Positions 535-18,682 of a DNA stretch of 21,649 nt are shown piece by piece. The position numbers and the translations under genes were made by a program. The stretch spans positions 1 through 21,649 of the forward strand of contig JADJJK010000031.1 of assembly GCA_016706545.1 (NCBI GenBank). Reading direction: 5' to 3'. The DNA comes from Myxococcales bacterium (lineage in GTDB: Bacteria; Myxococcota_A; Polyangia; Haliangiales; Haliangiaceae). Each line of letters begins with the position of its first letter. The first letter of the stretch is position 1. The notes under the pieces were generated by a model, which had not been told where the DNA came from, did not search any database, and saw nothing but the letters and a program-made list of their open reading frames with translations.

Positions 535-762
535 TCACTTCGGAAACGGGAAGGTCGGCAGCGGCAGCGGCTGCTGCGGCGGCAGCTTGACGTCGGGGTT
601 GATCGACGTGGTGCAGCCCGCCTGCGAAGGGGTCGGGGTGGCGTTGGGCCGGCGATCCTCCACGTTGGTGGACTGGCAGTCCGTCGGCGAGTAGCGCATG
701 CCGCCGCTGATGCCGGAGAGGTCGGTGAGGTCGAGGGTCTGGAGCGAGCTGGCGTTGGACAT
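535..762 (-). CDS. Small 75-aa peptide with a double-glycine (GG) leader: MSNASSLQTLDLTDLSGISGG | MRYSPTDCQSTNVEDRRPNATPTPSQAGCTTSINPDVKLPPQQPLPLPTFPFPK
   Basis: The internal ATG at 762 to 760 (minus strand) lies within the longer 535..828 ORF. Almost every codon ends in G or C, so it is strongly coding-like. Its N-terminus matches the class II bacteriocin/PCAT double-glycine leader consensus position by position: L-15, L-12, D-8, L-7, I-4, G-2, G-1. The 54-aa core is polar and Pro-rich with 2 Cys. Confidence 0.5.
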   Translation of the reverse strand: MSNASSLQTLDLTDLSGISGGMRYSPTDCQSTNVEDRRPNATPTPSQAGCTTSINPDVKLPPQQPLPLPTFPFPK

Positions 763-930
763 GCTCGCCTCGTATTGCAACGCGCGTGCCCTGCGCTGTG
801 GTGGCGCAACTGGCCGAGGTCGCGTCATCGGTGCGCGGCGCTGGGGCGGTGACCCGCGAGCGATCCTGGGATTTGCCGACCACGGTCGACAGCTCGCGAC
901 ACAGCCGGCCTGGCCAGCGGTCCGCTCACG

Positions 931-990: not shown

Positions 991-1632
991 TCAAGGTCCG
1001 CGCGGCGCGGCGGTCTGCAGGAGCTCCTGGTAGTACTCCCCGAGCGCGCGCTCGAACCCATCGAGCGGGTGCCCGGCAGCGCCGGGGTGGCCCGTCGCTC
1101 GCTCCGCCAGGTCCAGCACGCAGCCGAGCATGGTGGCGAGCGCGGCAGCCGCGTGCCCCGCAGAGTGCAAGGCCAGCGACAGGAACGCGGTGTACGCCGC
1201 GTACCCCGGATCTCGCGCCAGCTCCTCGGTGAGCAAGACCACCGCCTCGTCGGCGCGGCCCACGTTGCGCAAGGTCGAGCCGTAGCCGACGACGAAGCGG
1301 CGACGCAGCGGCTCGGGCACGCCGAGCTGCCAGGCCGCGTCGTAGTGGCGCACGGCGGCGGCCTCGTCGCCGGCGCGGTCGAGCCCGAACGCCGCCTCGA
1401 TGCGCGCCTCCACGTCCGAGGGCGCGCGCGCCGCCAGCGCCAGCGCGGCCGGCAGGTGGTCCTGATGGTCGCCACGTTGACGGAGCGCGCGCAGGCGCGA
1501 AGCCTCCGCGCGGAGCTTCGCGCTGTCCGCGTCATCCGCGCTGTCCGCGCCGTCCGCGTCATCCGCGCCGTCCGCGCCCGCGCTGTCCGCGCCATCCGCG
1601 GCGCCCAGCGGAGGTGCGCGCCGCTGCGTCAT
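991..1632 (-). CDS. Hypothetical protein with an Asp/Ala low-complexity N-terminus (DGADSAGADGADDADGADSADDADSA) and a C-terminal TPR-like helical domain (TPR_5-like)
   Basis: 213-aa ORF with coding-like G/C third-position bias. Its ATG at 1632 to 1630 overlaps the TGA of the upstream EVE gene (ATGA overlap), which implies an operon. The C-terminal half has TPR-like helices (RHYDAAWQLG...VVGYGSTLRNVGRADEAVVLL...). Confidence 0.6.
   Translation of the reverse strand: MTQRRAPPLGAADGADSAGADGADDADGADSADDADSAKLRAEASRLRALRQRGDHQDHLPAALALAARAPSDVEARIEAAFGLDRAGDEAAAVRHYDAAWQLGVPEPLRRRFVVGYGSTLRNVGRADEAVVLLTEELARDPGYAAYTAFLSLALHSAGHAAAALATMLGCVLDLAERATGHPGAAGHPLDGFERALGEYYQELLQTAAPRGP
1530..1610. repeat. 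In-frame tandem 9-nt coding repeat (RTCCGCGYC) encoding the (D-G/S-A)n N-terminal tail of the 991..1632 protein
   Basis: gtccgcgtc atccgcgct gtccgcgcc gtccgcgtc atccgcgcc ...; it encodes ADGADSAGADGADDADGADSADDADSA on the minus strand. Confidence 0.8.
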
Positions 1633-2264
1633 CGCGTGGTCCCCCGCGCGGGCTTGGCAGGCTTGGCCTTGGCCTTGGCGACAGGCTTGGCCTTGGCGGC
1701 AGGCTTGGCCTTGGCGACAGGCTTGGCCTTGGCGGCAGGCTTGGCCTTGGCGGCAGGCTTGGCCTTGGCGGCAGGCTTGGCGCCAGCGCCGCTCCCCGCA
1801 GCGCTTCGGCTGAGCTCCTGGATCACGGCCACGTGCGCTGCGCTCGCCGGCTGCACCGAGAGCCTCATGCCACGGCGCAGCACCAGCATGTCCGCCAGCC
1901 GCGGCTCGGCGTGCAGCTCCTCCAGGCTCACCAGGCGCGGCAACGTCGCCACGTACGAGACGTCCACGCAGATCCAGGTGGGCGCGTCGCGCCGCGCTTT
2001 GGGATCGTAGTAGGGGCTCTCGGGATCGAACTGCGTTTCATCGACCACGTTGGTCCGATGCACCCGGGCCATCCCGGCGACTCCAGAGGGGTGCGCGTTG
2101 GAGTGGTAGAACAGGACCTCGTCACCCACCTGCATCTCGTCGCGCATGAGGTTGCGGGCCTGGAAGTTGCGGACCCCGGTCCACGGTTCGATCTTGACGC
2201 GGGCGAGATCATCGATCCCGAAGGACTCAGGCTCGGTCTTCATGAGCCAAACGCGCGGTGCCAT
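1629..2264 (-). CDS. EVE (PUA-like) domain protein fused to a histone H1-like Lys/Ala/Pro repeat tail (AKPAAK x about 7)
   Basis: N-terminus MAPRVWLMKTEPESFGIDDL...VGDEVLFYHSNAHPSGVAGMARV is a typical EVE-domain start and core. The C-terminus is encoded by a tandem 18-nt DNA repeat at about 1651-1790 and is extremely basic (AKPAAKAKPVAK...). Confidence 0.8.
   Translation of the reverse strand: MAPRVWLMKTEPESFGIDDLARVKIEPWTGVRNFQARNLMRDEMQVGDEVLFYHSNAHPSGVAGMARVHRTNVVDETQFDPESPYYDPKARRDAPTWICVDVSYVATLPRLVSLEELHAEPRLADMLVLRRGMRLSVQPASAAHVAVIQELSRSAAGSGAGAKPAAKAKPAAKAKPAAKAKPVAKAKPAAKAKPVAKAKAKPAKPARGTTR
1651..1790. repeat. In-frame tandem 18-nt coding repeat (GCAGGCTTGGCCTTGGCG) encoding the AKPAAK histone H1-like tail of the EVE protein
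   Basis: About 7 near-identical 18-mers alternating GCGACAG and GCGGCAG variants. Confidence 0.85.
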
Positions 2265-4193: not shown

Positions 4194-7100
4194 TCAGGGC
4201 ACGAGCTTCTGCAGAAACGCCAGGCCATCGGCGTTGCTGTCGAGCAACCCGATCACCAGCTTGGCGGTGGCGCGCGCCATCGGTCCGCCGCCGTCGGCTT
4301 CCTTCTTGAGCGCCTCGACGGCCGCCTTGGCTCCGGGCGGCGTGCGCGCGAGCACGATGAACGCCGCCGCCACCACCAGCCGGCGCATGGCGTTCTGCTC
4401 GGCGCCACCGAGCAAGGCGCGCAGGCGGTCGGGGGCCTGGGTCTTGGCGTAGGCGGCGGCCAGCGACGGCAACATGGCTACCCGCACGTCGTGCGAGGGG
4501 TCAAGGAGCAGCGGCTCGAGGAGCTGCTCGGTCAGCGCGGCGTCGCGATCGACGAGGCCGATGGCCGCCGCCGCCGCTTGCGCGCGCTCGCGCTCGGTGC
4601 GGGACGCCAGCGCTCGTCCAAGCCGGGTCGCCACCGCCTCCTTCGCGGCCAGCCTGGCCACCGTGGTCAGCGCGAGCTGGCTGATGTCAGGATCGGTGTC
4701 CCGCACCGTGACCGCGAGCGCCTTCTCGATGCTCTGGACCGGGAGCTTGTCGCGGTGGAGCGTGAGCTGCTCGAGCGCCGCGCGGCGGACCTCGGCTTCT
4801 GGATCGGCCAGCGCGGTCGCGAGCGTGGCCTCGGCGGCGATGCCCGCGCTCAGCGAGGCCTCGACCGTGGCCACGCGCACCTCGGCGACCTTGTCGGCCA
4901 TGCCGCGCGTCATCAGCTCCACCACCCCGAGCTGCTTGGCCGCGCGCAAGAGCGCGAGCTTCTCGCCCTCGTCGCCGCGACCGAAGCCGCGCAGCAGCGC
5001 CGGCGCCGCCGCCTCGCTGGCCGCGTTGCCGAACGAGCCGAGGCCGCGGATCGCGACCATGCGGACCTCTCGGACCGCGTCGTCGGCCAGCGCCACCAGC
5101 GCGTCTGCGGCGGACTTGTTGCCGTTCTTGGCGGCGTCGGAGAGGATGCGCGCGGCCGTGGTGCGGATGCCTGCGTCTGGATCTCGCACCAGGCGCAGCG
5201 CGATGGCCGATCCGTTCTTGCCGGGCTCGGGGCCCTCCGCCACGCACTCGATGGCGATGCGACGCACCTCCACGGACGGGTCGTCAGTGGCCCGCACCAG
5301 CGAGCGCCGCGCGTCCTGCGAGCCGCCGCCGATGGCGTTGCACAGGCCCTGGACGCCGAGCGGGTGCAGGGCCGGATCATCGGTCGCGCGCGCGGCGGCC
5401 TCGAGGAAGTTGAGCACGTTGGCCGGACGCTTGCGCGCCAGCTTGGCGTAGATGCGGACGGCCTCTCTCCGCGGGCGTCCCTTCTGCTTCCAGAGCTGCG
5501 CGATGCCGTCCACCGCGACCGCGGTGGACGCGCCCTCTTCGGCGCCGGCGGCGAGCCCAAAGCCCGCGCCCACCGCGACGTCGAAGCGCTCGTTCTTGAC
5601 CATCTTGATGAGCTGCTCTTGCGCCGGTCGTCCGATGCGACCGTAGGCGGTCGCCGCGGCGGCGCGGACGTCCGGAGCGTCGTCACGCAGCAAGGTCTCG
5701 AGCGCGGGCCGCGCGACGTCCGCCTTGATCAGCACCAGGAGCCCCCAGGCCTTGGCGGCGGCGACCTTGAGCGGGCGGCTCGTCTTCTTGTCGCTGGTCA
5801 GCGCGCCAAGCGCGGGCACCGCGCGGTCCACCGCCACCCTGGCGTAGAGGGGCAGGGCGGCGGCGCGGAGGGCCTCCGACTTGTTGTCGAAGGCATCCTG
5901 GGCGATCGTCACCAGGTCGATGGCGGGCGGCAGCGGATCTAGCTCGGTGAGCATCTCCAGCGCGAAGATCCGCGACTCGTTGGGGGCGTCCTTGGCCAGC
6001 ACCGCGAGCGCCTCCACGGTGGCCGCGCGCGCGGCCGCCAGCGAGGAGCGGAGCATGGCGCGGGCCGCGTCTCGTTGCCCAGCCGAGGTGTTGGGCTCGG
6101 TCAGGATCGCGACCGCGGCCGACGGCGGCGGCCGATCTTCTGTGCCGGTGTCCACGATGGCCAGCGCCTGGAGCTCGCTGCGCGCCTTGGCGTCGATGTC
6201 GCCGGCGAGCGCGCCAGCGATGAGGCGGTTGGCTCGCTCCTCCGGCATGGTGCGCAGCTCGGTGAGCGCGCTCTTGCGCAGCTCGGGGTTGCCCGAGGCC
6301 AGCGCCTTGGTGAGCGCCTCGGTGTAGGGCTCCGGGCGGCGCCGCGCCGCCGCCGAGGCCACCGCCACCGCGGCGCGCTGCACCGCGGGGGAGGGCGAGG
6401 CGATGGCCCCTTCGATGAGCGCGGTCTCCGCGCGCCCGCCGCGGGCGATGGGGCGCAGGAGGTCCAGCATCTCGACGACCTCTTCAGGCTCCTTGGCCAG
6501 CTTCTTGAGCTTGTCGAGGGCTTCCTCGGAGCCGGTCGCGCCATAGGCGACCGCGGCGGCGAGGCTCGGCGCCATGACGGAGGCGACCCGGGGCTCCATG
6601 CGTCCGGCGTCGTCGCCGAGATCGTGGTTCTCGATGCGCTTCCACGCCTCGGGGGCGACCATGCTGCGGGTCAACCCGGTCTCGGCGACGATGTCGCCGA
6701 AGCCGAGCCAGTGGAACATGGACAGGCCGGCGCGGCCGTCGCGCAGCACCACCTGATCGCCGCCGGCGCGCGTCTGGACGTCGAAGTACACACGGCCGCT
6801 CATCGCGATGTACGCGATGAGCAGCAGCACCAGCGGGAGCGCGGCGATGGCGATGGCGATGGCGCCGTAGTAGCGCCGCGAGCGCGCGACCAGCGCCTTC
6901 TCCTGCGGGGTGACCGGCGCGATGCCCTCGCGCACGAGCGTGTAGAGCTCGACGAGCCGCAGCCGCGAGGCGGTGTCGGCCTTGGAGCCGAGCAGCTCGT
7001 GGGCGCGCCTGGCCGCGGCGCGGGTGGGCGCGGTCAGCTCGCGCAGCCTGGACACCAGGATCTCATGGCGCAGGCTCCACATGGTGCCGGCGATGTCCCA

Positions 7101-8186
7101 GCGCATGACGATGCCGCGCGCCTCGAGCGTGTCGAGGATGTGGCGGCCGCTCTCGGGCTCCAGGGTGATGCGGCGGGCCAGGGCCAGGCCGTCGTACGGA
7201 CCAAAGGGGCCGTCCGCCAGCTCGGCGAGGAGCCGCAGGCCGTTGCGCTGGCTCCCTGCGGCCACGCAGGCGTCGGTGATCCACGAGGCCGCCAGCTCGC
7301 GCGCGCCGCCGCCGCGGGTCAGCGCCTCGAGCGTGGTCACGTTGCGCAGGCCCAGCGCCAGCGCGCTGATCTGGAGGTCGGCGGGCAAGACGCCGTCTCC
7401 GTCCTTGCCGAGATAGGCGATCACCTCATCGACCACCGGCCGCATCGCGCCGGGCGGCGCGCCGGAGGCGATCATCGCCTCGAGCACCGCGCTGGCCTCG
7501 GCGGGCGCAAAGCGGCGGAGCTCGTAGCGGTTGGACGGCGGAAACAACGAGCCGGTGCGCCGCTCGAGCTGCGCCAGCGTGTGCATGCGCTCCGAGGCAC
7601 AGGCAAAGAGGAACCGCGCCCTGCCGCCGGCGCGCCCGGCGACCTTGGCGAACAGATCCGCGAGATCTGCGGTGCCGCGCTCGGTGCGACAGGTTCGATC
7701 GACGTCGTCGATGACGAACACGAACTGCTGGCCGGGGATCGCGTTGGCGACCGCCCGCGCCAGGAACACGGGCGGAGACTCCCCTGGTTGCTGCTGCAGC
7801 CCAAAGGCGCTCATCCCCGCCGCCAGCGAGGCGGAGGGCTCGTCTGGATCGTCGCTGATGAGCGCGACGATGCCTTGATCTCGGAGCTGCGGGATGAGTG
7901 CCGCGCGCAGGAGCGAGGTCTTGCCGACGCCTGGCTCGCCATAGAGCAGGCCAGCGCGAAACACGTCGGTGGTGACGAGCTGGACCAGCTCGTCGCGTTG
8001 TCGCTCTCGGCCCAGCAGCGCCTCACGTTCGGCTTCACCGAAGGCGTCGAGGCCACGCAAGGGCGATACCGTACCTGGATGCGTCGCGATCGCCACGGCG
8101 AGACTATACAGATCCGGCGCCTGAAATGTCGTTGTCGGGGCGGGCGTTTTGCCTGCGGCGGACGCGCGGACAAGGCGCGGGCGCAT
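4194..8186 (-). CDS. Large (1330-aa) multidomain protein: N-terminal AAA+ (AAA_16/STAND-like) P-loop ATPase, one central transmembrane helix, and a C-terminal array of about 850 aa of HEAT (PBS-lyase type) repeats
   Basis: Walker [14 protein letters not shown] and Walker [11 protein letters not shown] predicted TM segment [26 protein letters not shown] lies at about aa 455-480. After it come many approximately 31-aa HEAT_2/PBS-lyase-like repeats (e.g. [69 protein letters not shown]). The frame is long and clean with coding G/C third-position bias. The start codon is embedded in a 13-bp x3 direct repeat. Confidence 0.8.
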
Positions 8187-8219
8187 CGGTCAGGCGCATC
8201 GGTCGGGCGCATCGGTCTG
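8181..8219. repeat. Three tandem 13-bp direct repeats GCGCATCGGTCNG overlapping the AAA-HEAT start codon, inside the 96-bp divergent promoter region
   Basis: gcgcatcggtcag gcgcatcggtcgg gcgcatcggtctg. The CAT of the first copy is the reverse-complement ATG start of the 4194..8186 gene. Confidence 0.8.
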
Positions 8220-8282
8220 GCCAAGCGGGCTCGACAGCTCGCGGGGCCTGCGATAGACCAAGGAACAACTCGGGGGGCAATC

Positions 8283-9017
8283 GTGGCAGCGTCTGTCTGC
8301 GAAGTTCGAAATCTCACGGTCCAGTACGGCAAGCGCGTCGCGGTGGATGGCCTGGAGCTGGACCTGCACGCCGGCGACGTGACGTTGCTGCTGGGGCCCA
8401 ACGGCGCGGGCAAGTCCACCGCGCTGTCGGCGATCTCGGGCGCGCTGGTGCCCACCAGCGGCACCATCCGCATCGCCGGCTGCGATCTCGCCACGGATCC
8501 CCTCCGCGCCAAGGCCAAGCTTGGCTTCGCCGATCAGCCGCCTGCGCTGTACGAGTTCCTGACGGTGGTCGAGCACCTGGAGTTCGTGGCCGCCGCGCGC
8601 AGCGCCGAGCGCGGCGAGGTGGACCGCGTGATGACGCGCCTGCAGCTAACCGGGATCGCGCAGCGGCCGTGCCGCGAGCTGTCGTATGGCATGCGGCAGC
8701 GGGTCGGGCTGGCCGCGGCGCTGGTGGGCGACGTGGCGCTGGTGCTGCTCGACGAGACGCTCAACGGGCTCGATCCGTACGCGGCGCGCAGCGCTCGCGG
8801 CGCGGTGGAGGAGGTCGCGGCGCGCGGCGCGGCGGTGCTCATGTCCACCCACTTGCTCGGCGGCGCAGAGCGGATGTGCCAGCGCGCGATCATCATGGAC
8901 GGCGGGCGGGTGGTCGCCGACAAGAGCGGCGAGGAGCTGGCCACGCTCGTCGCTGGCGGGGCCGGAGCGCTGGAGGAGCTGTACGTCTCGGTGGTGCCGG
9001 ACCGAGGTCCGACGTGA
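8283..9017 (+). CDS. ABC transporter ATP-binding protein
   Basis: Proposed GTG start at 8283, preceded by GGGGGG about 5 nt upstream. It has Walker A GPNGAGKST, the ABC signature LSYGMRQR, Walker B LVLLDETLNGLD and an H-loop STHLL. It is divergent from the AAA-HEAT gene across only about 96 bp. Confidence 0.85.
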   Translation: MAASVCEVRNLTVQYGKRVAVDGLELDLHAGDVTLLLGPNGAGKSTALSAISGALVPTSGTIRIAGCDLATDPLRAKAKLGFADQPPALYEFLTVVEHLEFVAAARSAERGEVDRVMTRLQLTGIAQRPCRELSYGMRQRVGLAAALVGDVALVLLDETLNGLDPYAARSARGAVEEVAARGAAVLMSTHLLGGAERMCQRAIIMDGGRVVADKSGEELATLVAGGAGALEELYVSVVPDRGPT

Positions 9018-10261
9018 TCGACGCGGCCAAGCTCCGTCACGTGCAGCGAGAGGTCGGGCGGCGCAGCGGCGGCCGCCGGCGGACGTGGCTCGCGATGCTG
9101 GTCACCGGCGCGGCGGCGGCCGCCTGGGTGGCCACCGCGCCTGATGGCTCCGCGGCCAGCACGCGCTGGCTCTGGACCGCGGTGGCGCTGTACGCGGTCG
9201 CGATGTTGCGGGTGCCGTTCGTGCTGTTCTGGCGCGCCGACGCGGCGCTGCTCGCCAGGCTGCCCATCGAGGGCCGGCCGCTGTGGGGCGCGGCGCAGTG
9301 GGCAACTGGCGAGCTGGCCGCTCAGGCGCTGGCCGCCAGCTCGCTGGCCGCGCTGCCGCTGGCGGTGCTCGCGGGGCCTGACGCTGTCGCGGTGCTCGGC
9401 CGGCACGCGGCGCTGGCGGTGGCGCTGGCGTTCGCCGCGGCGGCGCTGGTCCCTGCGGTCGCGGTCGCCGCCGGGGCGCTGGTGGTCTCTGGCAAGGCCG
9501 ATCAGCTCCTGGCCGGGCTCGGCGGAGAGGTGAAGGCGCCTCCGACCGCCTGGCTGGGGGTGCTCCCAGGGCTGGCCTCGGCCGTGGCGGTGCTCCTGGC
9601 CATCGACGTCGGCGGCTGGCTGCGCGGCGGGCACGCCGAGGTCGGCGACGCCGTCTTGCTCCTGGCCGGGATGAGCGCCGCCTCCGTGGTGGCCGCGCTG
9701 CTGGCCCGCGCCGCGGCGGACCGGGTCATGCCGGCCATGCTGCGCGACGTCTCGGCGCTGGATCGGCAGCAGCTCGCGACCATCGAGCTGACCGCGGCGC
9801 CCGCCACCCTGCGCGCGCTGGGGCGACAGTTGACGCCGGGCGCGCGGCTGCTACTGGACAAGCACGCGCGGCTGCTGGCGCGACGTCACCCGATGTCCGC
9901 GGTGCTGGGCGCGGTGGCGTTTGCGATCCTGGCGGTCAGCGCGCTGGCGTCGTCGCACGCCGCCGTGCTGCAGGTGACCACGCTGGCGGTGACGTTTGCA
10001 TACGCCATGGTATTGCGCGGCCGCATGGCGCAGCCGCCGGTGGAGCTGCCGAGGCTGCGCGACAGCCTGCCGCTGACGCCAGGTGACGCGCAGGCCGCGG
10101 CGCGCACGTATGTGCTGTGGTGGTGGGGATGGTTCGCGCTGCTGCCAGGGGCGCTGGTCCTGGCGCGCACGGCGCAGCTCTGGCAAGTGGCGCCGGCGCT
10201 GGCGGCCGGGACGCTGCTGCTGGTCCTTGGCGGCGGCGGTGGCCGCGCGACCGCGCGCTGA
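9014..10261 (+). CDS. Polytopic membrane protein, probable ABC-2-type permease partner
   Basis: The GTG at 9014 overlaps the TGA of the ABC ATPase (GTGA), which indicates coupling. The roughly 415-aa product is very hydrophobic and Ala/Leu-rich, with at least 6 predicted TM helices. The exact start is uncertain; an alternative ATG (MLVTGAAAA...) lies about 30 codons downstream. Confidence 0.6.
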   Translation: MIDAAKLRHVQREVGRRSGGRRRTWLAMLVTGAAAAAWVATAPDGSAASTRWLWTAVALYAVAMLRVPFVLFWRADAALLARLPIEGRPLWGAAQWATGELAAQALAASSLAALPLAVLAGPDAVAVLGRHAALAVALAFAAAALVPAVAVAAGALVVSGKADQLLAGLGGEVKAPPTAWLGVLPGLASAVAVLLAIDVGGWLRGGHAEVGDAVLLLAGMSAASVVAALLARAAADRVMPAMLRDVSALDRQQLATIELTAAPATLRALGRQLTPGARLLLDKHARLLARRHPMSAVLGAVAFAILAVSALASSHAAVLQVTTLAVTFAYAMVLRGRMAQPPVELPRLRDSLPLTPGDAQAAARTYVLWWWGWFALLPGALVLARTAQLWQVAPALAAGTLLLVLGGGGGRATAR

Positions 10262-10353
10262 CCGCGAGGCGCTGACGGCCGACGCTGCATCGTGTCAGCG
10301 GCCTTGCGCTGGGGCGCGCCTGCCATGCTGCATTTTTTCGCTGCGCCCGAGGC

Positions 10354-10464
10354 CGCGCATGGGCGCCGCCCGGGGCCGCGCATGGGCGCCGCTGCGCAGC
10401 CGAGGCTTTGCGGTGACGAGATCGCGACTTGGACGCAGCGGTCGCAGTGGTCGCAGCGGTCCTT
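10354..10464. repeat. Two short direct-repeat motifs in the spacer: CCGCGCATGGGCGCCGC x2 (about 10354-10393) and GCAGYGGTC x3 (about 10438-10464)
   Basis: Read directly: ccgcgcatgggcgccgcccggggccgcgcatgggcgccgc and gcagcggtcgcagtggtcgcagcggtc. Confidence 0.7.
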
Positions 10465-10565
10465 GGGACCTGTGGTCATCAGGTTTTCACGTTCCCGGCT
10501 CCGCTTTGGATGCGCGCGGCGGCAAGAGCCTGTACGCTCAGCGGGCTCATGGGCGAGCCGCGGTC

Positions 10566-10678
10566 GAACTCATCGGCGAACTCATCGGCGAGTTCATCGG
10601 CGAACTCATCGGCGAGTTCAGCGGCGAGCGGCGAGTTCATCGGCGAACTCATCCGCGAGTTCATCGGCGAACTCATCG
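10566..10678. repeat. Tandem 12-mer array alternating GAACTCATCGGC and GAGTTCATCGGC, about 9 copies (a 24-mer unit)
   Basis: cgaactcatcggcgaactcatcggcgagttcatcggcgaactcatcggcgagttca...gagttcatcggcgaactcatccgcgagttcatcggcgaactcatcg. It would encode ELIGEFIG in one frame, or RTHRRV in the giant-ORF frame. Confidence 0.85.
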
Positions 10679-10756
10679 ATAGGTCCTGCGATAGAGCCTT
10701 TGCCAGACTCCGCCACGGACGCCAGGGACGACGGCGGACCGCGTGCCGGCTCGTCA

Positions 10757-10822
10757 TCTCCATCGCTGCCGTCGCTGCCGTCGTCGCCGTCGTCGCCGTC
10801 GCCATCGTCGCCGTCGCCATCG
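10757..10822. repeat. Tandem GCCGTCGYC / CCGTCG microsatellite, about 10 units
   Basis: ccatcgctgccgtcgctgccgtcgtcgccgtcgtcgccgtcgccatcgtcgccgtcgccatcg. It would encode SPSLPSLPSSPSSPSPSSPSPS in the giant-ORF frame. It lies immediately upstream of the proposed ATG at 10847. Confidence 0.8.
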
Positions 10823-10846
10823 CGCGGCGGCAAGATCGTCGAGGAG

Positions 10847-13800
10847 ATGCTCGAGGTGGCGCGCGCCGAGGCTGACGCGGCGATGTCTGCGGCGGAGCGC
10901 GAGGTCGCTGGCGACCTGGCGGCGCGGGCGGTGCTCCTTGCCTGGGACAGCCAAAGCCTGGTGCCGGCGAGCATCGCGAGCCGCGCCGGTGACGGGACCG
11001 GGCCGCACGAGCCGTCGGGGACAGGCGCCGGGGGGCTCGCCTCCGATCCAGCGTGGGCAGAGCGGACGCTGTTCTTGCCGGCCACCCACCCGCTGAGCGC
11101 GCGGCTCCAGCTCGCCGCGGCGCTGGCTGGGTCGGTGGGGCGCGCGGACGCCGATTCGAGCTTGCTGTGGGCCGAGCGCGCCGTTCACCACGCCGATCCG
11201 CAACACCGCGGTGATCTTGCGCTCTGGCTGGCCGAAGCCTGGCAGCTCGGTGGCGGACGCCCGCCGGCCACCGTGCTCGAGCTGGTGGTGGCTGGCGAGT
11301 CGCCGCACGCGCGGGCGCTGGCGCAGCTCGTGGGGTTCGCGCCGCGGCGCGTGGCGGAGCTGTCCGCGGCGGCGGTGGGGCGGCACGGCGGCGGCGACGA
11401 GCGCGCCGAGGCGGCCAGCCTGCTCCTCGACTCCGGCGCGGACCCGCGTGAGGCCGCCGCGCTGTGCGCGCGCGTCGCCAGCAACGCGCTGGAGGTCCGG
11501 CTGCGGTGCCTGGAGCTCGCCATCGAGGCCAGGCTGCGCGGCGACAGCCAGGAGGACCTGACGCAGCTCTGGCTCGAGCGCGCCGCGCTGGTGGGGGACC
11601 TGTCCAATGGGGCGCTCGATGCGGCGGTGTCTCGTGTGCTGGCGGTGGAGAGCGATGATTCCGGACGCGATTCCGCGCGCGATTCCAGCCGGGACCTTGG
11701 CCCGCGCCGCACCCCGTCCGAGCCCAACCTCCGCGTCCTGGCTCGGATCCCCAGAGCGAGCAAGAGCCCGATGGCTGGCGACGACGCCGAGCCCGTCGCT
11801 GGCCACGCCGCGGGAGCTGCCGCGCCGCGACCGCCGCGTCACGCGCAGCTCACCCCGCTGGCGGAGTCTCCGGCGGTGCGAGATCCGTACTTCGGTCCGC
11901 TGTACCTGCGCATGCGCAGCCTGACCTACGCCATCGCCGCCGGCGATCGCGCGGCGGCCACCGAGCTCCGGCGCCGGCTCGCGTTCGAGTCGCCCTGTCC
12001 GGTGGTGGCGGCGTGCCACGCGGCGCGCGCGGCCACCAGCCTCGAGGTCGCGATGGCCAGCGCGCCGGAGGCGGCGGTCGTCGACGCGCGCGACACCCGC
12101 GGCTCCGCGCTGGAGCTGGCGGAGGTGGCCTGCGAGCGCGTGCCGAGCCCGACCTTGCTGGCGTTGCTCGACCGCGCCTGGCTGCGCCGATCGCCCATCC
12201 CCGCGCAGGCGGTGGAGCGGCTGTCGCAGCGCGGCGGCGTGGCGCTGCGCTGGGCCGCTCACCTGGCGGAGCGCCGGCTCCTCGATCTGCCGCGCGCGAC
12301 GCGGCTGTGGTCGCAGGCCGCCGAGCTGGCGACGGCGGACAGCGGCTTCGCGCTGGATCACCTGGCGTCGTGTCACCGGCGGCTGGGCGACCACGAGGCG
12401 CTCGCCAAGATCTACGTCGCGCTGGCTGGACGCGAGGACACGCCCCGCGGGGTGGCGGTGTGGCGGTGCGCCGCCGCGGCGCTGGCCCTGTCGCGCGACG
12501 GGGAGGGCGCCCGGAGCGCGCTGGAGCGCGCCGTGGAAGCTGCGCCGCGTGACCCGGTCAGCCGGATCGGCCTCTTGCGGGTGGTCCTGGCCGCGTCGGA
12601 GTGGAGCACCGCGGTCAAGCTGCTGGAGGACATGATCCCCAAGCTGGCGGTGCGCGCGCTGCGGCAGCGATACTCGCGCGAGCGCGCGTGCTTGCTCGAC
12701 GTACACCTGCAGCGCTCCGCGGAAGCCGAGGACGCCTTCGAGCAGATCCTGGCCGAAGACCCGCTGGACGCCGACACGCTGGTGGCGCTGGGCGAGCTGT
12801 ACGAGCGGCGGCAAAAGCCGATGCTCGCCATCGCCGCGCGGCGACGCGCCTGCGATCTCTTGCCCCCGGCAGCCAGGGTTTCCCAGCTCGTGATCGTGGC
12901 GGAGCTGTGCCGCAACCACTCCGAGCTGGAAGACGGCCTCTCCGCGCTGGAGGAGGCGCAGCGGCTGGATCCCGAGAACTCGGACGTCCACCGCATGCTG
13001 GCCGACCTCTACGAGCAGCTCGGCAAGCCCGAGTACGCGGTGGTCGCGCTGCGCATGGAGCTGGCGCGCAACCCGGAGCCACCCCGGCGCATGGTCGCGC
13101 AGCTTCGGCTCGCCGGGCTGCTGGCCCGCCTCGGCACCGAGCCTGAGTCCGTGGTCGCGTTGTATCTCGATGTGTTGTCGATGGATCCCAGCAGCAGCGA
13201 GGCGCTCGCCGGCATCCAGGCGCCGGCGCGTGCGCTGGGTTGGTGGGACGCGCTGACGCGCGCCTTCCGCGCGGCGCCGCCCACTGCCGACAACCTGGTC
13301 GTGCTGGCCGACGCGCTGGAGAAGATGTCGAGCTTCGCGGAGCTAGCGCGGGTGCGCCGAGCGCAGCTCGAGGCCGCCACCTTGCCGGCGGAGCGCGCTC
13401 GCCGCGCCTCGGAGCTGGCGGTGCTGCACGAGACGCGGCTCGGTGATCCCGACGCCGCGATCGCGGCGCTGCGGCAGGCGGTGGGGGTGGCGCCCGAGCT
13501 CGAGCGCACAGGCCTTCTCCAGGACCTCGAGCAGCTCCTGGAACGCCATGGGCGCTGGCCGGAGCTGGCCGAGCTGTTCTCGAGCGAGCTGGCGCGGTGC
13601 GAGCCGGCGCAAGAGGAGGAGCGCGTGCGGCTGCATCTGCGTCGCGCGCGGGTCTGCGCCGAGCGGACCGGAGATCTCGCCAGCGCGGTGGCCGCCTGCG
13701 AGGCCGCGCTCGAGATCTTGCCGGAGCAGGTGGAGACGCAGGAGCTCCTCGCCGCGGTGTACGAGCGGGCGGGGCGGCGGCGAGACGCGATCCGGATCGT

Positions 13801-16800
13801 GCAGGGCCGCGCGCAGGCCGCCAGCGGCAGCGAGCGCGCCGGGCTCCTGGCGCGGGCGGCGCGCCTCCACCTGGCAGAGGACGACCTGGCCGGTGGCCTG
13901 GCGGCGTACCAGGCCGCCATCGAGGCCGACCCAGGCGATCGCGAGACCTTCACCGCCTACGAGCGCGCGTGCTACGCGCACAAGCGCTGGCCGGACGTGC
14001 TGCGCCTGTATGACACCGCCATCGCGCACGTCGAGGCGGGCGCGCACCGCGCCTACCGCCTGTTTGACCTGTACTCGCGCAAGGCGCAGGCGCAGGCGTC
14101 GTACCTGGGAGACCCAGACGGCGCCGCCGAGTCGCTGTGCCGGCTCATCGTCCAGGAGAACAACCCGGACGCATCCCTCAAGCTGATGGAGGAGCTCTGC
14201 GCCTCACGCGGCGACTACGCCGCGCTGGTGGACGCGCTCGAGCGCCGGGCGCAGGCCGCGCGAGATGGCGCGCGCAGCCTGGACGCGCTCCGCCGCGCGG
14301 TGACGGCCGCCGAGACGTACCTGGATGATCCCGCGCGCGTGGCGAAGCTCCGCGCGCAGGTGGTGCGGCTCGATCCTTCCGATGAGGCCAGCGCCAGCGC
14401 GCTCGAGGCCTTCTATCGTGAGCGCAAGGAGGTGACGGCGCTCATCTCGTTTCTGCACACCCAGATCGAGGCCAGCCGAGACTCCGCGCGCACGGTCGAG
14501 CTCCTGCAGCGGGTGGCCGAGGTCAGCGAGGACGACGCGCGGGACGTCGAGGGCGCCATCTTGCACTACACCAAGATCCTCGAGATCGAGCCCCGACACG
14601 TGGAGTCGCTGGAGGCGCTCAGCCGCATCTACGAGTCCACCGAGCGCTGGACGGAGCTCATCGAGATCACCCGCCGGCAGATCAAGGGCATGGCGGACCG
14701 CAGCAGCAAGGCGCTCTTGTACTTCCGCTGCGGCTCGGTGATGGAGGCCAAGTTCGGACGCGAGGAAGACGCGATCCGGTACTACCAGGCGGCGATCACG
14801 GTCTCGACGGCGTGCATGCCCGCCGTCCACGGCCTGCGCGATCTGTACCGTCGGCGACAGGAGTGGGCGCGCGTCGTCGAGACGCTGGAGCTCGAGCTCA
14901 AGCTCTGGCAGGACGACAAGGAGCGCGCCGGCGTGCTGGCCCAGATCGGGCAGGTCTACGCGGAGCGGATCGGCGACGGTCGCAGCGCGCGGCAGTACTT
15001 TCACGAGGCGCTGGCGGTGGACCCCGAGTGCGTCCCCGCCAACTGGGCGCTGTTCGAGGATTACTTCGCCGCTGGAAACTGGGAGCAGGCCCGGCCGCTG
15101 GCCAGCTCGCTGACCCAGCGGGCCATGCACGATGGCGATCCGGCGACGCGCAGCGAGTTCTATCGCAAGCGAGCGATGGTCTCGCTGCACACCGGCGATC
15201 CGCGAGACGCCGCCGAGAGCTTCGTGGTGGCGCTGGAGATCCGGCCCACCAACCTGGACGCGCTGGAGGCGCTCGGGAGGGTGGCGCGGAACCACCCCAC
15301 GGTCTACGACTTCGAGAGCACGTACCGCGAGCTGGAGCGGATCTATCGCCGGCGAGACGACGCGGCGCCGCTGCTGGCGCGCGTGTGGATGGGGTTGGCG
15401 ACGCTGGCGGAGCGCGCCGGCGATCTCGATCACGCCGCGGATCTGTCCAGCGCGGCCACCTCGCTGGCGCCCACGGATCTCATCGTGCTGATGGCGGTGG
15501 TGGACTTCCACTGCGACATGCGGCGCTGGGCCGCGGCGGTGGACGCCATCCTGGCGTTCTTGCCGCAGGCAAACCCGGCGGACGTCACCGCGGCGCGGCT
15601 GCGGCTAGCAGAGCTCCACGCCGATGGCCAGCGCGACGCCTCGCGCGCGATCGCCGTGCTCGGGGACGTCGTTCGCGATGAGCCCACCTGCCACGAGGCG
15701 CACTACCTGCTCGCCCAGCAGCACTACCTGCACGGTCGCCTCGCGGAGGCGCGCGCCGCCATGGACGCCGCGCTGGAGCTGGCGGAGTCACTGCCCGCGG
15801 CGACCGCGGACGCCGCGCTGGCGCGCTACCACTACTACCGCGGTCGCGTCCTCGGCGCGCAGGGCGATGGCGCCGCCGCCGAGGCGCAGTACCGCCTCGC
15901 GTGTGACCATGACCGTGGCTATGCGCCGCCGGCCTTGCTGCTGGCGCGGCGCGCCGCCGAGGTGGGGGACCATCGCCAGGCCGAGGCCCTGCTGATCGAA
16001 GCCGCGCGCGCCGCCATCGAGCAGCGCGGGGTGGTGGGGGCGGTGCCGATGCAGCGCGGCCTGGCCCGCATCCTCCTGGCCAATGGAGACCGGGTCGCGG
16101 CCATCGAGGCGTACCGCGGCATCCTCGCGGTCACGCCGGACAACGCGATCGACCGCGTCGCGCTGGCCGAGATCTACGCGGTCGATGATCTGCCGCGCGC
16201 CATCGCCGAGCTGCGCAAGGTGATCGATCGCGACCTTCGTCACGCGCCAGCGTACCGGCTCCTGGCCTGGTACTACGAGCAGCAAGGGGAGCTCGAGCGC
16301 GCGGCGCGGGTGCTGGCCGTGCTGGAGCTGATGGGCTTTGCAGAGGACAGCGACCTGGAGACGGCGCAGCGGCTGCGCGCCGCGCGGGTGGCGCCGCCGA
16401 TCGTGTCCTCGCTGGGCTCCGAGCAACGTCATCACCTGCTGGCGACGCGGGCCACTCGCGACGTCCTGGGCGAGGTCTGGTCCGTGTTCGCGCCGGCGAT
16501 CTCGGCGCTGTTCCCGCCGTTTGCGCTGGGCGAGGACCTGGTGCCCATGGAGGCCTACGGGGACGCCTCGCTGTGCGAGGACTACGCCGAGGTCGCGCGG
16601 ATCTTCGAGACCTCCGCGGAGGTGTTCCTGGGAGATCGGGTGCCGGGGATGACGATGGTGGTGACCCATCCACGACCGGCGATCGTCATCGACCGGGCGC
16701 TGGCGCAAGAGAGCCGCGCCGCCCGGCGCTTCCTCTTTGGCTGGTCGCTCGACGCGATCCGCGGCTCCTACGCGGTGCTGCTGTCCCTCGGCGCCTCGCA

Positions 16801-17185
16801 GTGCAGCGAGCTGAGCGCCATCCTGCGCGAGCTGTTCGCCAGCGAAGGCGACCGCTCGGGCGTGGCCGCGGAGCTGGTGCGCGTGGGAGGGGCCTCGGGG
16901 ACCAAGGTCCTCGACAAGTACGCCGGCCGGATGCGTGAGCTGGACGTCGAGGGGTGGATGGATGGCATGCTGGCCGGCGCCAAGCGCAGCGGTCTTTTGG
17001 CCTGCGACGAGTTCGAGGCCGCGATCTGGATGATCGCGCGCCTCTCCGGGGAGCGCCTCGCCGGGCACGACGACACCGCGGCGCTCGGTGCGGTGCTAGG
17101 CGGCGCGGACCTGGTACGGTACTACCTGAGCGATGACTACCAACGCCTGCGACAGAGCTTGACGGCCGCGAAGGCGGAGTCATGA
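10847..17185 (+). CDS. Giant (about 2110-aa) tetratricopeptide (TPR) repeat protein with a non-TPR C-terminal domain of about 280 aa
   Basis: The continuous frame has strong G/C third-position bias. There are dozens of TPR-like units (e.g. ADTLVALGELYERRQKPMLAIAARRRACDLLP; VHRMLADLYEQLGKPEYAVVALRMELARNPE; VESLEALSRIYESTERWTELIEITRRQIK). The ATG at 10847 is the first start after the repeat-nest spacer, although the long ORF formally opens at 10292 inside non-coding-looking repeats. The C-terminal roughly 280 aa (ELMGFAEDSD...LTAAKAES) is not TPR. Confidence 0.75.
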   Translation: MLEVARAEADAAMSAAEREVAGDLAARAVLLAWDSQSLVPASIASRAGDGTGPHEPSGTGAGGLASDPAWAERTLFLPATHPLSARLQLAAALAGSVGRADADSSLLWAERAVHHADPQHRGDLALWLAEAWQLGGGRPPATVLELVVAGESPHARALAQLVGFAPRRVAELSAAAVGRHGGGDERAEAASLLLDSGADPREAAALCARVASNALEVRLRCLELAIEARLRGDSQEDLTQLWLERAALVGDLSNGALDAAVSRVLAVESDDSGRDSARDSSRDLGPRRTPSEPNLRVLARIPRASKSPMAGDDAEPVAGHAAGAAAPRPPRHAQLTPLAESPAVRDPYFGPLYLRMRSLTYAIAAGDRAAATELRRRLAFESPCPVVAACHAARAATSLEVAMASAPEAAVVDARDTRGSALELAEVACERVPSPTLLALLDRAWLRRSPIPAQAVERLSQRGGVALRWAAHLAERRLLDLPRATRLWSQAAELATADSGFALDHLASCHRRLGDHEALAKIYVALAGREDTPRGVAVWRCAAAALALSRDGEGARSALERAVEAAPRDPVSRIGLLRVVLAASEWSTAVKLLEDMIPKLAVRALRQRYSRERACLLDVHLQRSAEAEDAFEQILAEDPLDADTLVALGELYERRQKPMLAIAARRRACDLLPPAARVSQLVIVAELCRNHSELEDGLSALEEAQRLDPENSDVHRMLADLYEQLGKPEYAVVALRMELARNPEPPRRMVAQLRLAGLLARLGTEPESVVALYLDVLSMDPSSSEALAGIQAPARALGWWDALTRAFRAAPPTADNLVVLADALEKMSSFAELARVRRAQLEAATLPAERARRASELAVLHETRLGDPDAAIAALRQAVGVAPELERTGLLQDLEQLLERHGRWPELAELFSSELARCEPAQEEERVRLHLRRARVCAERTGDLASAVAACEAALEILPEQVETQELLAAVYERAGRRRDAIRIVQGRAQAASGSERAGLLARAARLHLAEDDLAGGLAAYQAAIEADPGDRETFTAYERACYAHKRWPDVLRLYDTAIAHVEAGAHRAYRLFDLYSRKAQAQASYLGDPDGAAESLCRLIVQENNPDASLKLMEELCASRGDYAALVDALERRAQAARDGARSLDALRRAVTAAETYLDDPARVAKLRAQVVRLDPSDEASASALEAFYRERKEVTALISFLHTQIEASRDSARTVELLQRVAEVSEDDARDVEGAILHYTKILEIEPRHVESLEALSRIYESTERWTELIEITRRQIKGMADRSSKALLYFRCGSVMEAKFGREEDAIRYYQAAITVSTACMPAVHGLRDLYRRRQEWARVVETLELELKLWQDDKERAGVLAQIGQVYAERIGDGRSARQYFHEALAVDPECVPANWALFEDYFAAGNWEQARPLASSLTQRAMHDGDPATRSEFYRKRAMVSLHTGDPRDAAESFVVALEIRPTNLDALEALGRVARNHPTVYDFESTYRELERIYRRRDDAAPLLARVWMGLATLAERAGDLDHAADLSSAATSLAPTDLIVLMAVVDFHCDMRRWAAAVDAILAFLPQANPADVTAARLRLAELHADGQRDASRAIAVLGDVVRDEPTCHEAHYLLAQQHYLHGRLAEARAAMDAALELAESLPAATADAALARYHYYRGRVLGAQGDGAAAEAQYRLACDHDRGYAPPALLLARRAAEVGDHRQAEALLIEAARAAIEQRGVVGAVPMQRGLARILLANGDRVAAIEAYRGILAVTPDNAIDRVALAEIYAVDDLPRAIAELRKVIDRDLRHAPAYRLLAWYYEQQGELERAARVLAVLELMGFAEDSDLETAQRLRAARVAPPIVSSLGSEQRHHLLATRATRDVLGEVWSVFAPAISALFPPFALGEDLVPMEAYGDASLCEDYAEVARIFETSAEVFLGDRVPGMTMVVTHPRPAIVIDRALAQESRAARRFLFGWSLDAIRGSYAVLLSLGASQCSELSAILRELFASEGDRSGVAAELVRVGGASGTKVLDKYAGRMRELDVEGWMDGMLAGAKRSGLLACDEFEAAIWMIARLSGERLAGHDDTAALGAVLGGADLVRYYLSDDYQRLRQSLTAAKAES

Positions 17186-17591
17186 GCGAGCGGGGGCGGG
17201 CGCGGGCCGCAGGCGGCGCTGACTCGATGGGACAGAAAGAGCGGAGGAGTCGAGCAAACCGTATGGCAGCTCGCGTCCCTTCGCCCGCTCAAATGCCTGG
17301 TCGCAACCGTGCGTTGCACTGCATTGATGAGCCAGATCTCCTCATGCCGCGGCGCGCCACAGGCGGTTCGAGCGCTCCGTTGCTCCCGAGGTCCTCGTGT
17401 AAAGTGCTTGAATATAAAACGATTGAGCACCCTGCCGACCTCCACCTTCGGGAGTTGGCAATTTCGCAATCACCCAACCAGAAATCCACCGTTGCCATGG
17501 ATCATGGCCCGATCATGACGCTATGCTTGACCGGCATGGTTAGACCCAGGCGATGTAATCGAGGCCACGAGGATTACGTCATGGTGAGACG
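17186..17591 (+). promoter_or_regulatory. An approximately 400-bp intergenic island of markedly lower GC upstream of the STAS gene; probable promoter/leader region
   Basis: It contains stretches such as gtgcttgaatataaaacgattgagcac and ttggcaatttcgcaatcacccaaccagaaatcc that are atypical for this genome. Overlapping ORFs have non-coding codon usage. Palindromic bits CCATGGATCATGG and TCATGA lie near the start. Confidence 0.4.
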
Positions 17592-18554
17592 GTGAGTCAC
17601 AAATTCAACGCGACCATTCAGCATCGAGACGACGTCAGCTACGTAAAGCTGGCGGGCGTCATCGACGAGGACAATGAGCTCGCCAACATCGTAGAGCGGA
17701 TTCCTCGAGGGACAGCCGTGATCGATCTCGGAGAGATCGAGCGGATCAACTCTTGTGGAGTTCGCGACTGGGTGAACTGGCTCAGTCGGCTCGAGGCCCA
17801 AGGTACGCGAGCGATCCTGGTCGAGTGTTCGCCGGCGATCGTCGCCCAGATAAACCTCGTCAACAACTTCACCGGCACGGGCGTGGTGAAGAGCTTCTTC
17901 GTTCCCTATTTCTGCCCCGAGTGCGACGAAGAGAAGGTCTTGCTGGTCGAGACCTCGGACATGGGGCCTCCGCCGCACGAGCCGCCGATGTGCCGGTGCG
18001 ATGAGTGCGATCTGGTCATGGACTTCGATGACATGCCAGACTCGTACTTTGCGTTCCTCTCCAACTCGAGGAAGTACGCAGAGGCGGAGAAGGTCAGCGG
18101 CGCCATCCGCGACATGGGCGGGCCCTCCGAGCCTTCGGACAAGGCGCGGGTTCGCTCGCGCGTCAGCTCGCCAGCCATCGCGCCCTCGCCCAAGGGCGCT
18201 CCGCCCGGTCTGCCGGGGCGGCCGAGCGCACCTAACCGGCTGTCGGCTCCACCTTCCTACGGTGCCCCAGGCGCCGCGGGCGCGCGTCCAGGTCTTCCAA
18301 GCTTTCCGCCCCGTGGCCCCTCGAACCTCGGCGGGCCGAACCCGATGTCAAATGGCGGCGGCCTGGGCCCGCTGCCACCGTCGGGGCCGATGTCGTCAGC
18401 GCCAGCGACCGCTGGCATGGCGCCGCTCGGCATGGGCATGGGGCCGCTGCAAGGCGCCGCCCCGGCCCGGCGCGGCAACGCCACGATCTACACGCTGGTG
18501 GGGGTCCTGGTGGTCGCGATCGGCGTGCTCGGCTACCTGCTGCTGACGCGCTGA
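17592..18554 (+). CDS. Tail-anchored STAS-domain protein (anti-sigma-factor-antagonist-like) with an internal 4-Cys zinc ribbon and a Pro/Gly-rich linker
   Basis: GTG start. The N-terminus is STAS/SpoIIAA-like ([16 protein letters not shown]...[23 protein letters not shown]), with a conserved Ser at the phospho-site position (INSCG). Then comes CPECDEE...(about 25 aa)...CRCDECD (C-x2-C ... C-x-C-x2-C), an approximately 130-aa P/G/S/A low-complexity segment, and a C-terminal TM helix [20 protein letters not shown]. The upstream region is unusually AT-rich. Confidence 0.75.
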
Positions 18555-18682
18555 GCTGGCTTTGGCCGGCGCCCGCCGCGCTTGGCCTGGCGGGTGTCGA
18601 GGCGCGCCGACGCCGGCGGGTGTCGAGGCGCAGCGACGAAGCGTTCCTGGGAGAGCGGCCTGGGAGAGCGGCCTGGGAGCGG

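Follow-up and report, generated by a model that had tools for sequence, protein, structure and literature searches.

An orphan gene for a predicted double-glycine-leader peptide in a Myxococcales contig belongs to a conserved family with a YpfJ-like core motif and a sigma-54-type upstream motif

In this study, we analysed a stretch of 21,649 nucleotides from a Myxococcales bacterium (assembly GCA_016706545.1, contig JADJJK010000031.1), referred to below as the window, with regard to a small minus-strand gene at 535-762 that encodes a 75-residue precursor peptide. The results showed that 535-762 is a real gene under purifying selection, and the assignment of its N-terminal part to the double-glycine (GG) leaders is supported at the level of a whole protein family. 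With moderate confidence, we read its product as an inducible, unmodified GG-leader peptide of the class II microcin or orphan GG-peptide kind, probably exported by a C39-peptidase ATP-binding cassette (ABC) transporter (PCAT). The central claim of an earlier annotation made from the DNA letters (the original prediction), namely an orphan GG-leader peptide whose transporter is encoded elsewhere, is supported by the leader statistics of the family, by matches to hidden Markov models (HMMs) and by one PCAT operon. The gene and its immediate upstream region comprise the following features.

535-762, minus strand: precursor peptide gene, MSNASSLQTLDLTDLSGISGGMRYSPTDCQSTNVEDRRPNATPTPSQAGCTTSINPDVKLPPQQPLPLPTFPFPK, 75 codons plus stop (open reading frame (ORF) list, third-position G+C, orthologs)
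762-760 and 537-535, minus strand: start ATG and stop codon of the peptide gene
700-762, minus strand: double-glycine leader MSNASSLQTLDLTDLSGISGG, residues 1-21, with predicted cleavage after Gly21 and family-wide conservation of positions
538-699, minus strand: predicted mature peptide of 54 aa (residues 22-75), which varies less among orthologs than the leader does
640-699, minus strand: motif like the N-terminus of YpfJ, MRYSPTDCQSTNVEDRRPNA, residues 22-41, with the invariant NVEDRR at 649-666
676-678, minus strand: codon of Cys29, the predicted disulfide partner of Cys50
613-615, minus strand: codon of Cys50, invariant in the four close orthologs
777-790, minus strand: sigma-54-type promoter GGCACG-CGCG-TTGC (GGCACGCGCGTTGC), with the -24 GG at 790-789 and the -12 GC at 778-777
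792-808, no strand: inverted repeat TGCGC-N7-GCGCA, read from the sequence, abutting the -24 element

The leader carries Leu at -15 and -12, Asp at -8, Leu at -7, Ile at -4 and Gly at -2 and -1 (Gly20 and Gly21), exactly the residues that the original prediction had named. To collect family members, a profile was searched exhaustively and an alignment was used in a second, indexed search; together they gave 182 proteins with E<=10, and for over 120 of these the value was below 2.5e-6. These proteins are 49-157 aa long and nearly all unnamed; most belong to Myxococcota, the named ones being assigned to Myxococcales, Kofleriaceae, Polyangiales or 'Deltaproteobacteria' bins, and four cultured species of Chryseobacterium and two further low-GC lineages came from scans of genomes and metagenomes. 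All position statistics given below were calculated from 100 aligned members. Both glycines were present in 100/100 sequences, Leu at -7 in 99%, and Leu, Ile or Val at -12 likewise in 99%; Val, Ala, Thr or Ile occupied -4 in 98%, a residue of the set LIVMF occupied -15 in 80%, and Asp or Glu was found at -8 in 51%. The median leader length in the family is 21 residues, with a span of 15-30. Immediately after the two glycines, Met stands in 92% of the members and Leu, Phe or Tyr in the remaining 8%. The common plan of the family is thus a GG-ended leader, followed by [M/L/F/Y]-[K/R/Q]-[W/Y/F]-x(4-6)-[C/R]-x-S-x-N-[V/I]-E-D-R-R-[P/T/S/G] and then by a tail specific to each subfamily; Thr, Ser and Cys outside the motif are not conserved between subfamilies. 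In addition, tandem paralog pairs of the gene were observed at L017/L025 and L045. The family (~180 sequence clusters) has no Pfam or NCBIfam model, and NVEDRR gave no match in a literature collection of 8 million papers.

Comparison with curated GG-leader HMMs, which had been proposed as a check, gave a divided answer, in that family members match such models while the leader of the window stays below threshold. Specifically, ComC was the most frequent Pfam match (36/100 members, best E 2.3e-5), leader_Chryseo was matched at 8.7e-8 in 2 members, and the NCBIfam models matched by more than one member were mostly GG-leader families (TIGR04497, BlpC, CTB bacteriocin, leader_Chryseo, BriC and TIGR01847), the matches at family level being mostly weak. 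The leader of the window reached 18.3 bits against PF14406 (Bacteroid_pep; E 0.003, cut-off 25, the match covering residues 2-33) and 11.8 bits against ComC (E 0.22, cut-off 20.4), and the window peptide had no match in NCBIfam. In members from Chryseobacterium and other low-GC genomes, the same core is preceded by a leader of the Bacteroidota style (...LSKDVMKNIGGG). Because phylum-specific leaders sit on one core, the leader behaves as an exchangeable secretion module.

The original prediction had also held the 75-aa ORF to be genuine coding sequence, and this is borne out by its codon composition, its orthologs and its substitution pattern. In the window, which has about 72% G+C, the G+C content of the ORF at codon positions 1, 2 and 3 is 0.55, 0.57 and 0.95, respectively. 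The in-frame extension up to an ATG at 828 shows 0.73, 0.68 and 0.64, i.e., no periodicity, so that the upstream ATG was ruled out and the ATG at 762 was taken as the start. A homolog search covering 5.8 billion proteins found the identical protein annotated in a Myxococcales metagenome-assembled genome (IPI49_21840) and present in wastewater and activated-sludge assemblies. Moreover, the conservation in relatives that had been suggested as a check was found in the large family described above and in three orthologs (P0002-P0004), which share 69-75% identity and are each exactly 75 aa long, with no indels. Their pairwise dN/dS values range from 0.23 to 0.55 (Nei-Gojobori), with 0.16-0.50 for the core and 0.27-0.98 for the leader, indicating that the core is under tighter constraint.

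The opposite view would be that the ORF is not a gene or is mis-called, whether as GC-rich noise, as an element of the other strand or as a product translated from Met22; several frames are open in DNA of such high G+C, and third-position periodicity by itself does not distinguish strands. Against this, one protein architecture is common to over 100 relatives, some of them as distant as 30% identity and some encoded by AT-rich genes of Bacteroidota; the orthologs show no indels, and their dN/dS values stay under 1. The sense frame is the sole frame open across all 7 relatives tested. An Rfam scan of the window gave no match. Across 22 members, the leader codons have G+C contents of 0.61, 0.52 and 0.88 and the core codons 0.64, 0.54 and 0.89, a pattern missing from the 60 nt upstream of the members' genes. 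Taken with the 8% of members that have a residue other than Met after the glycines, this periodicity shows that the leader is translated and that Met22 is no general start, and Met22 was therefore ruled out as the initiation site. The non-gene view, to which we give next to no probability, is already effectively refuted.

The most conserved part of the product lies directly behind the leader, where Ser, Asn, Glu, Asp, Arg and Arg of the motif are invariant in 100/100 members. This segment resembles the N-terminus of the zinc metallopeptidase YpfJ/KPN_02809 (PF04228), which in E. coli reads MRWQGRRESDNVEDRR (translation of b2475 on NC_000913). An hhalign comparison of the 100-member alignment with E. 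coli YpfJ placed columns 22-41 on residues 1-20 (probability 94.4%, E 9.5e-8), the residue after the glycines falling on the initiator Met of YpfJ. The PF04228 model begins at YpfJ residue 1, and it was the second most frequent weak Pfam match of the family (35/100 members), at model positions ~1-20 only. The pattern M-[RK]-[WIL]-x(5,6)-S-x-N-[VI]-[ED]-D-R-R is present in both the window peptide and YpfJ homologs. The peptide ends at residue 75 and has no HEXXH, hydrophobic segment or catalytic domain; a PF04228 peptidase was ruled out, since the HEXXH domain of ~230 residues that follows the hydrophobic segment is missing.

Gene order also connects the two proteins. In 4/4 Chryseobacterium genomes, a ypfJ homolog precedes the peptide gene on the same strand at a distance of ~35-60 nt (60 nt in C. 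lathyri and 35 nt in C. culicis), and in the L027/L043 lineage (52% G+C) the genes lie side by side in divergent orientation. The link to YpfJ is supported because ypfJ adjoins the peptide gene in two lineages and in two arrangements; no ypfJ was found in the window or near myxobacterial members. Zinc-dependent protease activity in vitro has been demonstrated for YpfJ orthologs (PMC3269727), and the literature beyond that report contains incidental mentions and nothing on the N-terminal motif. In a positive-inside analysis, many YpfJ N-terminal tails were neutral or acidic, which does not settle the topology. No sequence relative of YpfJ was found in the PDB. An AlphaFold2 (AF2) model of C. 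lathyri YpfJ had a predicted local distance difference test (pLDDT) value of 71.5, with residues 11-13 in a paired strand at pLDDT ~50, and a Foldseek search of this model against the PDB gave nothing significant (best E 0.38).

It is possible, albeit doubtful, that the YpfJ-like motif functions in target recognition. A fuller scenario, which we put forward as speculation, would be that a PCAT-secreted family captured the N-terminal tail of YpfJ, that the mimicry serves to bind, in the producer or in cells nearby, either the partner of this tail or the protease itself, and that myxobacteria switch the peptide on through sigma-54 and leaderless transcripts. YpfJ is a widespread protease of unknown function, found in E. 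coli as well, whose N-terminus is shared with the invariant core. If the mimicry is true, the peptide would be a secreted 'microprotein' mimic and a first functional handle on the YpfJ tail and on YpfJ; if it is functional, simple experiments would open up on an old 'y-gene'.

Upstream of the gene, the window matches the sigma-54 consensus TGGCACG-N4-TTGCW at 11/12 positions, and GGCACG-N4-NTGC, situated 13-17 nt before the ATG, is the sole upstream block conserved among the four close orthologs. Among 25 distinct high-GC upstream regions of the family, 18 contained a relaxed and 13 a strict match, compared with a chance expectation per 80-nt window of 1.7% and 0.3%, respectively. Near-misses by one position include L033 and L037/38, in which the sixth base of the -24 element is A instead of G, and L045, in which it is T; in L005 the spacer is 1 nt longer, and L048 has TTGG at -12. 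Three further loci agree with the motif, making 28 independent Myxococcota upstream regions in all, and low-GC members lack it. The conserved motif implies that sigma-54 probably drives the family in myxobacteria.

The distance from the motif to the ATG is 13-36 nt in most of the 28 regions, and usually 13-14 nt separate the -12 GC from the ATG. This spacing predicts a 5' untranslated region of 2-3 nt, i.e., a near-leaderless mRNA. In the window, transcription would start near 765, ~3 nt before the ATG, and would depend on RpoN. The two members with a spacing of 31-36 nt carry AGGAGG or AAGGTG before the ATG; inspection by eye of the upstream sequences of members with 13-17 nt revealed no comparable consensus Shine-Dalgarno sequence. 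Scans for sigma-70 promoters and intrinsic terminators at 300-1100 found nothing. The inverted repeat at 792-808 is a weak candidate for a regulator site. Several side observations concern this region. In the subfamily of L023, L037-L039, L042 and L050, another repeat, CTGTC-N9-GACAG / GTAGACAG, occupies the same place and may likewise provide regulator sites. The called GTG start of P0039 (L052, position 10001) lies inside the sigma-54 promoter, and an ATG 18 nt downstream (MKFSNP...), likely the true one, restores the 14-nt spacing. A Sigma54_activat gene lies 5 kb away in L053, which may be coincidence.

Direct linkage to an exporter was observed in one relative. On a metagenome contig of 30% G+C (L036), the gene order is HlyD, a 719-aa protein with Peptidase_C39, ABC_membrane and ABC_tran domains, the peptide, and OEP/TolC, with a small C39-like protein after; in this PCAT the catalytic motif, QHDIKDCGAACL, is present and its Cys is intact. 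The Pfam scan of the large ORFs of the window detected no Peptidase_C39, HlyD, OEP or RiPP-enzyme domain (RiPP, ribosomally synthesised and post-translationally modified peptide), in agreement with the original statement that the window holds neither a C39 transporter nor a modifying enzyme. The consistently orphan genes of Myxococcota imply a shared exporter. Genes for homologous membrane-anchored proteins of ~100 aa (38% identity, E 7e-21) directly follow the peptide gene in L028 and in L035/L036, which suggests an immunity-like arrangement in two Bacteroidota lineages. These proteins (L028 10175-10510 and L036 6210-6557) have an N-terminal hydrophobic anchor and the motif KKYYHFG...IIN..C.AIPEL and belong to no Pfam or NCBIfam family; neither L029-31 nor any myxobacterial locus has the gene. 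Separately, a 607-aa exporter with ABC_membrane and ABC_tran domains and no C39 domain is encoded 124 nt after the peptide gene in the P0008 lineage of Myxococcota (L015 10337-12160); it was ruled out as a conserved partner since it did not recur in other loci. Beside the PCAT-peptide operon of L036, HamA and DEAD/Helicase_C genes (8568-11527) look like a Hachiman-type defence pair.

The predicted mature peptide has an average mass of 5938.6 Da (~2 Da less, 5936.6 Da, with a disulfide), a monoisotopic mass of 5934.91 Da when reduced, an isoelectric point of 7.8, 22% Pro and a grand average of hydropathicity (GRAVY) of -0.9, and is rich in Thr, Ser and Cys. It is therefore hydrophilic and Pro-rich with two cysteines (Cys29 and Cys50), as originally described. 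The number of cysteines per core in the family is two in 46, none in 47 and one in 6 of the aligned members, and the first Cys alternates with Arg at one fixed position of the motif. This two-or-none pattern fits a disulfide in an exported product or an oxidising destination, and a Cys29-Cys50 bond is accordingly predicted for the window peptide. AF2 gave no fold for the 75-aa peptide (mean pLDDT 64.5, predicted template modelling score 0.24), with short helices at residues 12-16, in the leader, and at 47-54.

Taken together, we propose the following course of events. The gene would be transcribed from the sigma-54 promoter 14 nt upstream of its ATG, with the help of the enhancer-binding activator that such promoters need, into an almost leaderless mRNA. 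A PCAT encoded elsewhere in the genome would recognise the 75-aa precursor through its 21-residue leader, cut after Gly21 and export the peptide, presumably together with a membrane-fusion protein and an outer-membrane channel. The product would be an unmodified, hydrophilic and Pro-rich peptide of 54 aa with one Cys29-Cys50 disulfide. Its exposed N-terminus (MRY...S.NVEDRR) would copy the YpfJ tail and engage the partner of this tail or the peptidase itself, and the specificity of each subfamily would lie in the variable Pro-rich tail. Export and cleavage of the window peptide, like all of its target biology, are predictions from sequence. We would sooner see the peptide as an extracellular effector, antagonistic or modulatory, than as a pore-former.

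Several observations weigh against this proposal. The window's own leader falls under every curated GG-leader HMM cut-off, PCAT, HlyD and TolC genes are absent from the window and within 6-10 kb of the Myxococcota members in the long-flank loci, and no immunity-like gene stands beside the myxobacterial members, which is unusual for a toxin. In addition, the mature peptide is hydrophilic and predicted to be disordered, the motif of YpfJ precedes the single hydrophobic segment of that protein and may thus be cytoplasmic, while an exported peptide would be outside, and the likeness over 20 residues could go back to a common ancestor and need not mean a partner in common. The lack of a nearby transporter, the hydrophilic and disordered peptide and the place of the motif in YpfJ would also suit an intracellular 'microprotein' that is not exported in Myxococcota and competes with the YpfJ tail for a cytoplasmic partner, the GG extension being a relic or having another role; the Met that follows the glycines in most members, aligned on the initiator Met of YpfJ, would agree with this as well. 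We regard such a peptide as quite unlikely, however, since the leader positions -4, -7, -12 and -15 and the glycines are under strong selection within Myxococcota, the leader is translated, with Leu, Phe or Tyr at the site of any internal start in 8% of members, the paired cysteines suggest an oxidising compartment, and one relative sits inside a PCAT operon. Alternatively, the peptide may be secreted as a signal, i.e., a BriC-like orphan GG pheromone that leaves through a shared PCAT, is sensed by a receptor and is driven by sigma-54 in starvation or development. The orphan state of the gene in every myxobacterial locus, with no immunity-like neighbour, the purifying selection on the orthologs and the weak matches of a few members to BriC, BlpC and ComC leader models are consistent with signalling, and control by sigma-54 would suit the regulated social behaviour of myxobacteria. 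Yet genes for sensor kinases or receptors do not recur in the vicinity, the motif is invariant over three phyla and common to a protease, unlike species-specific pheromones, and the Bacteroidota relatives appear toxin-like with their PCAT, TolC and immunity-like small membrane protein; we therefore consider a pheromone unlikely, though well worth keeping in view.

The original prediction had further raised a RiPP precursor, whose core would be modified by enzymes encoded elsewhere and whose leader would serve as both recognition sequence and export signal. TIGR04497, a putative ATP-grasp target RiPP model, was weakly matched by 21/100 members, and the weak PF14406 match of the window leader and the Thr, Ser and Cys of the core point the same way. 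However, the NCBIfam matches are weak (best E 1.3e-3) and stand among matches to other GG-leader families, the PF14406 match covers residues 2-33, and the Thr, Ser and Cys positions outside the motif vary between subfamilies. No modifying enzyme was found in the window, and no radical-SAM, LanM/LanB, YcaO, ATP-grasp or other such enzyme recurs beside the more than 20 related loci, the GSP_synth gene near L028 not being conserved in L029. The RiPP alternative thus found no support, and we deem it very improbable. Within the preferred reading of an unmodified PCAT-exported peptide, antagonism is favoured by the Bacteroidota operon and its immunity-like gene, and signalling by the orphan status in myxobacteria, the lack of immunity genes there, the hydrophilic core and sigma-54; we leave the two undivided.

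The surroundings of the gene in the window include two tandem arrays and a number of unrelated genes.

24-425: end of a PHP-domain gene, convergent to the peptide gene
417-515, no strand: tandem array based on a 9-mer, between the convergent PHP and peptide genes (Tandem Repeats Finder (TRF): period 9 at 417-472, overlapping rows to 515)
931-976, no strand: 8-mer tandem array GCCTGGTC, 5.8 copies (TRF), ~140-190 nt upstream of the promoter
991-1632, minus strand: TPR_5 gene, upstream of the peptide gene
1629-2264, minus strand: EVE gene, upstream of the peptide gene, its stop overlapping the TPR_5 start
4194-8186, minus strand: nSTAND1 NTPase with HEAT repeats, 1330 aa
~8350-9017: ABC ATPase gene between the nSTAND1 and TPR genes; the containing ORF (6075-9017) and the STAND gene, which run on opposite strands, overlap at the 5' end of the latter
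10292-17185, plus strand: 2297-aa protein consisting almost entirely of TPR repeats
Within the window (Pfam): Fe/Mn superoxide dismutase gene and gene of a SnoaL-like protein

The position of the peptide gene downstream of the EVE and TPR_5 genes is as first reported, and these genes are not part of the peptide unit. The neighbours of the orthologous genes differ, being TPR_5 and PHP in the window, a GlmU-like gene in L001, Ser_hydrolase in L010 and fasciclin in L011-13; the peptide gene is therefore a self-contained unit outside the EVE/TPR operon, and functional coupling to the EVE and TPR_5 genes was ruled out. Similarly, the two flanking arrays are real according to TRF and do not belong to the unit. 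Of the 8-mer, the window and L006 have 5.8 copies and L002-L005 have 3, the unit of L007 is a variant, and the array is absent from L001, L010 and L011; the 9-mer/27-mer array is rearranged in L002, its arrangement varying between near-identical strains, and neither array is present in orthologs. A role of the arrays as regulatory parts was ruled out by this lack of conservation and by their strain-variable copy number, and both behave like hypervariable intergenic microsatellites. In L007, an abrupt shift to lower-GC sequence occurs from ~1290 onward, downstream of the peptide gene, as an assembly chimera or a strain-specific insertion in the 9-mer array. The EVE protein has a K/A/P-rich tail (KPAAKA repeats) derived from an 18-nt tandem repeat of 6.3 copies (1668-1781), and the N-terminus of the TPR_5 protein is encoded by a 9-nt repeat (1519-1600). 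The ORFs at 17592-18554, 18620-19561 and 19478-21505 had no Pfam match, and the G+C content falls to 0.59-0.70 over 17000-21649.

PCAT-exported GG peptides are well known in Firmicutes and Enterobacteria, and very little has been described for Myxococcota. The nearest known systems are the class II microcins and related PCAT-exported peptides of Gram-negative hosts (MccV/ColV; survey PMC12219008), which resemble the present family in a precursor below 10 kDa, a GG leader of 15-30 residues with hydrophobic positions at -4, -7, -12 and -15, the lack of modifying enzymes, a likely single disulfide and, for one relative, genes for HlyD, PCAT and TolC in the same operon. In contrast, the window gene is an orphan like every myxobacterial member, with neither immunity nor dedicated export genes beside it; the core is hydrophilic and Pro-rich instead of Gly-rich and hydrophobic and contains an invariant motif common to a protease, and the gene appears to be under sigma-54 control. 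The bacteroidetocins are Bacteroidota peptides of fewer than 100 aa with GG signals, encoded near a PCAT, that target BamA, as summarised in the same survey (PMC6671954 and PMC8546649, cited in PMC12219008). By description only, the Chryseobacterium and L036 members are similar to them in size and layout, with a mature part of 40 aa and two Cys; unlike them, the NVEDRR family is mainly myxobacterial.

Two systems of Gram-positive bacteria offer partial parallels. Pneumococcal BriC is an orphan GG peptide exported by a shared PCAT. It resembles the present gene in its location away from the transporter and in having a dedicated regulator, and it differs as a short Gram-positive signalling peptide (NCBIfam NF033771) with an unrelated core and other regulation. 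LsbB-type bacteriocins, whose receptor is the membrane zinc metallopeptidase RseP, are a precedent for a small secreted peptide that needs a conserved motif and a membrane zinc metallopeptidase; unlike the present peptides, they are leaderless and Gram-positive and carry a C-terminal motif, and YpfJ as a receptor has no support here. With YpfJ/KPN_02809 itself, the family shares the alignment of peptide residues 22-41 with YpfJ residues 1-20 and the adjoining genes of Chryseobacterium and one further lineage, the difference being that the motif of the peptide sits behind a cleavable leader and that of YpfJ is the translational N-terminus. The kind of peptide is thus known, while Pfam, NCBIfam and the searchable literature contain no description of the family, its YpfJ-derived core or its predicted sigma-54-driven, leaderless expression. 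What sets this peptide apart from other bacteriocin-like ORFs is the combination of an invariant motif shared with YpfJ, a conserved sigma-54 promoter that predicts leaderless translation, and genes that stand as orphans.

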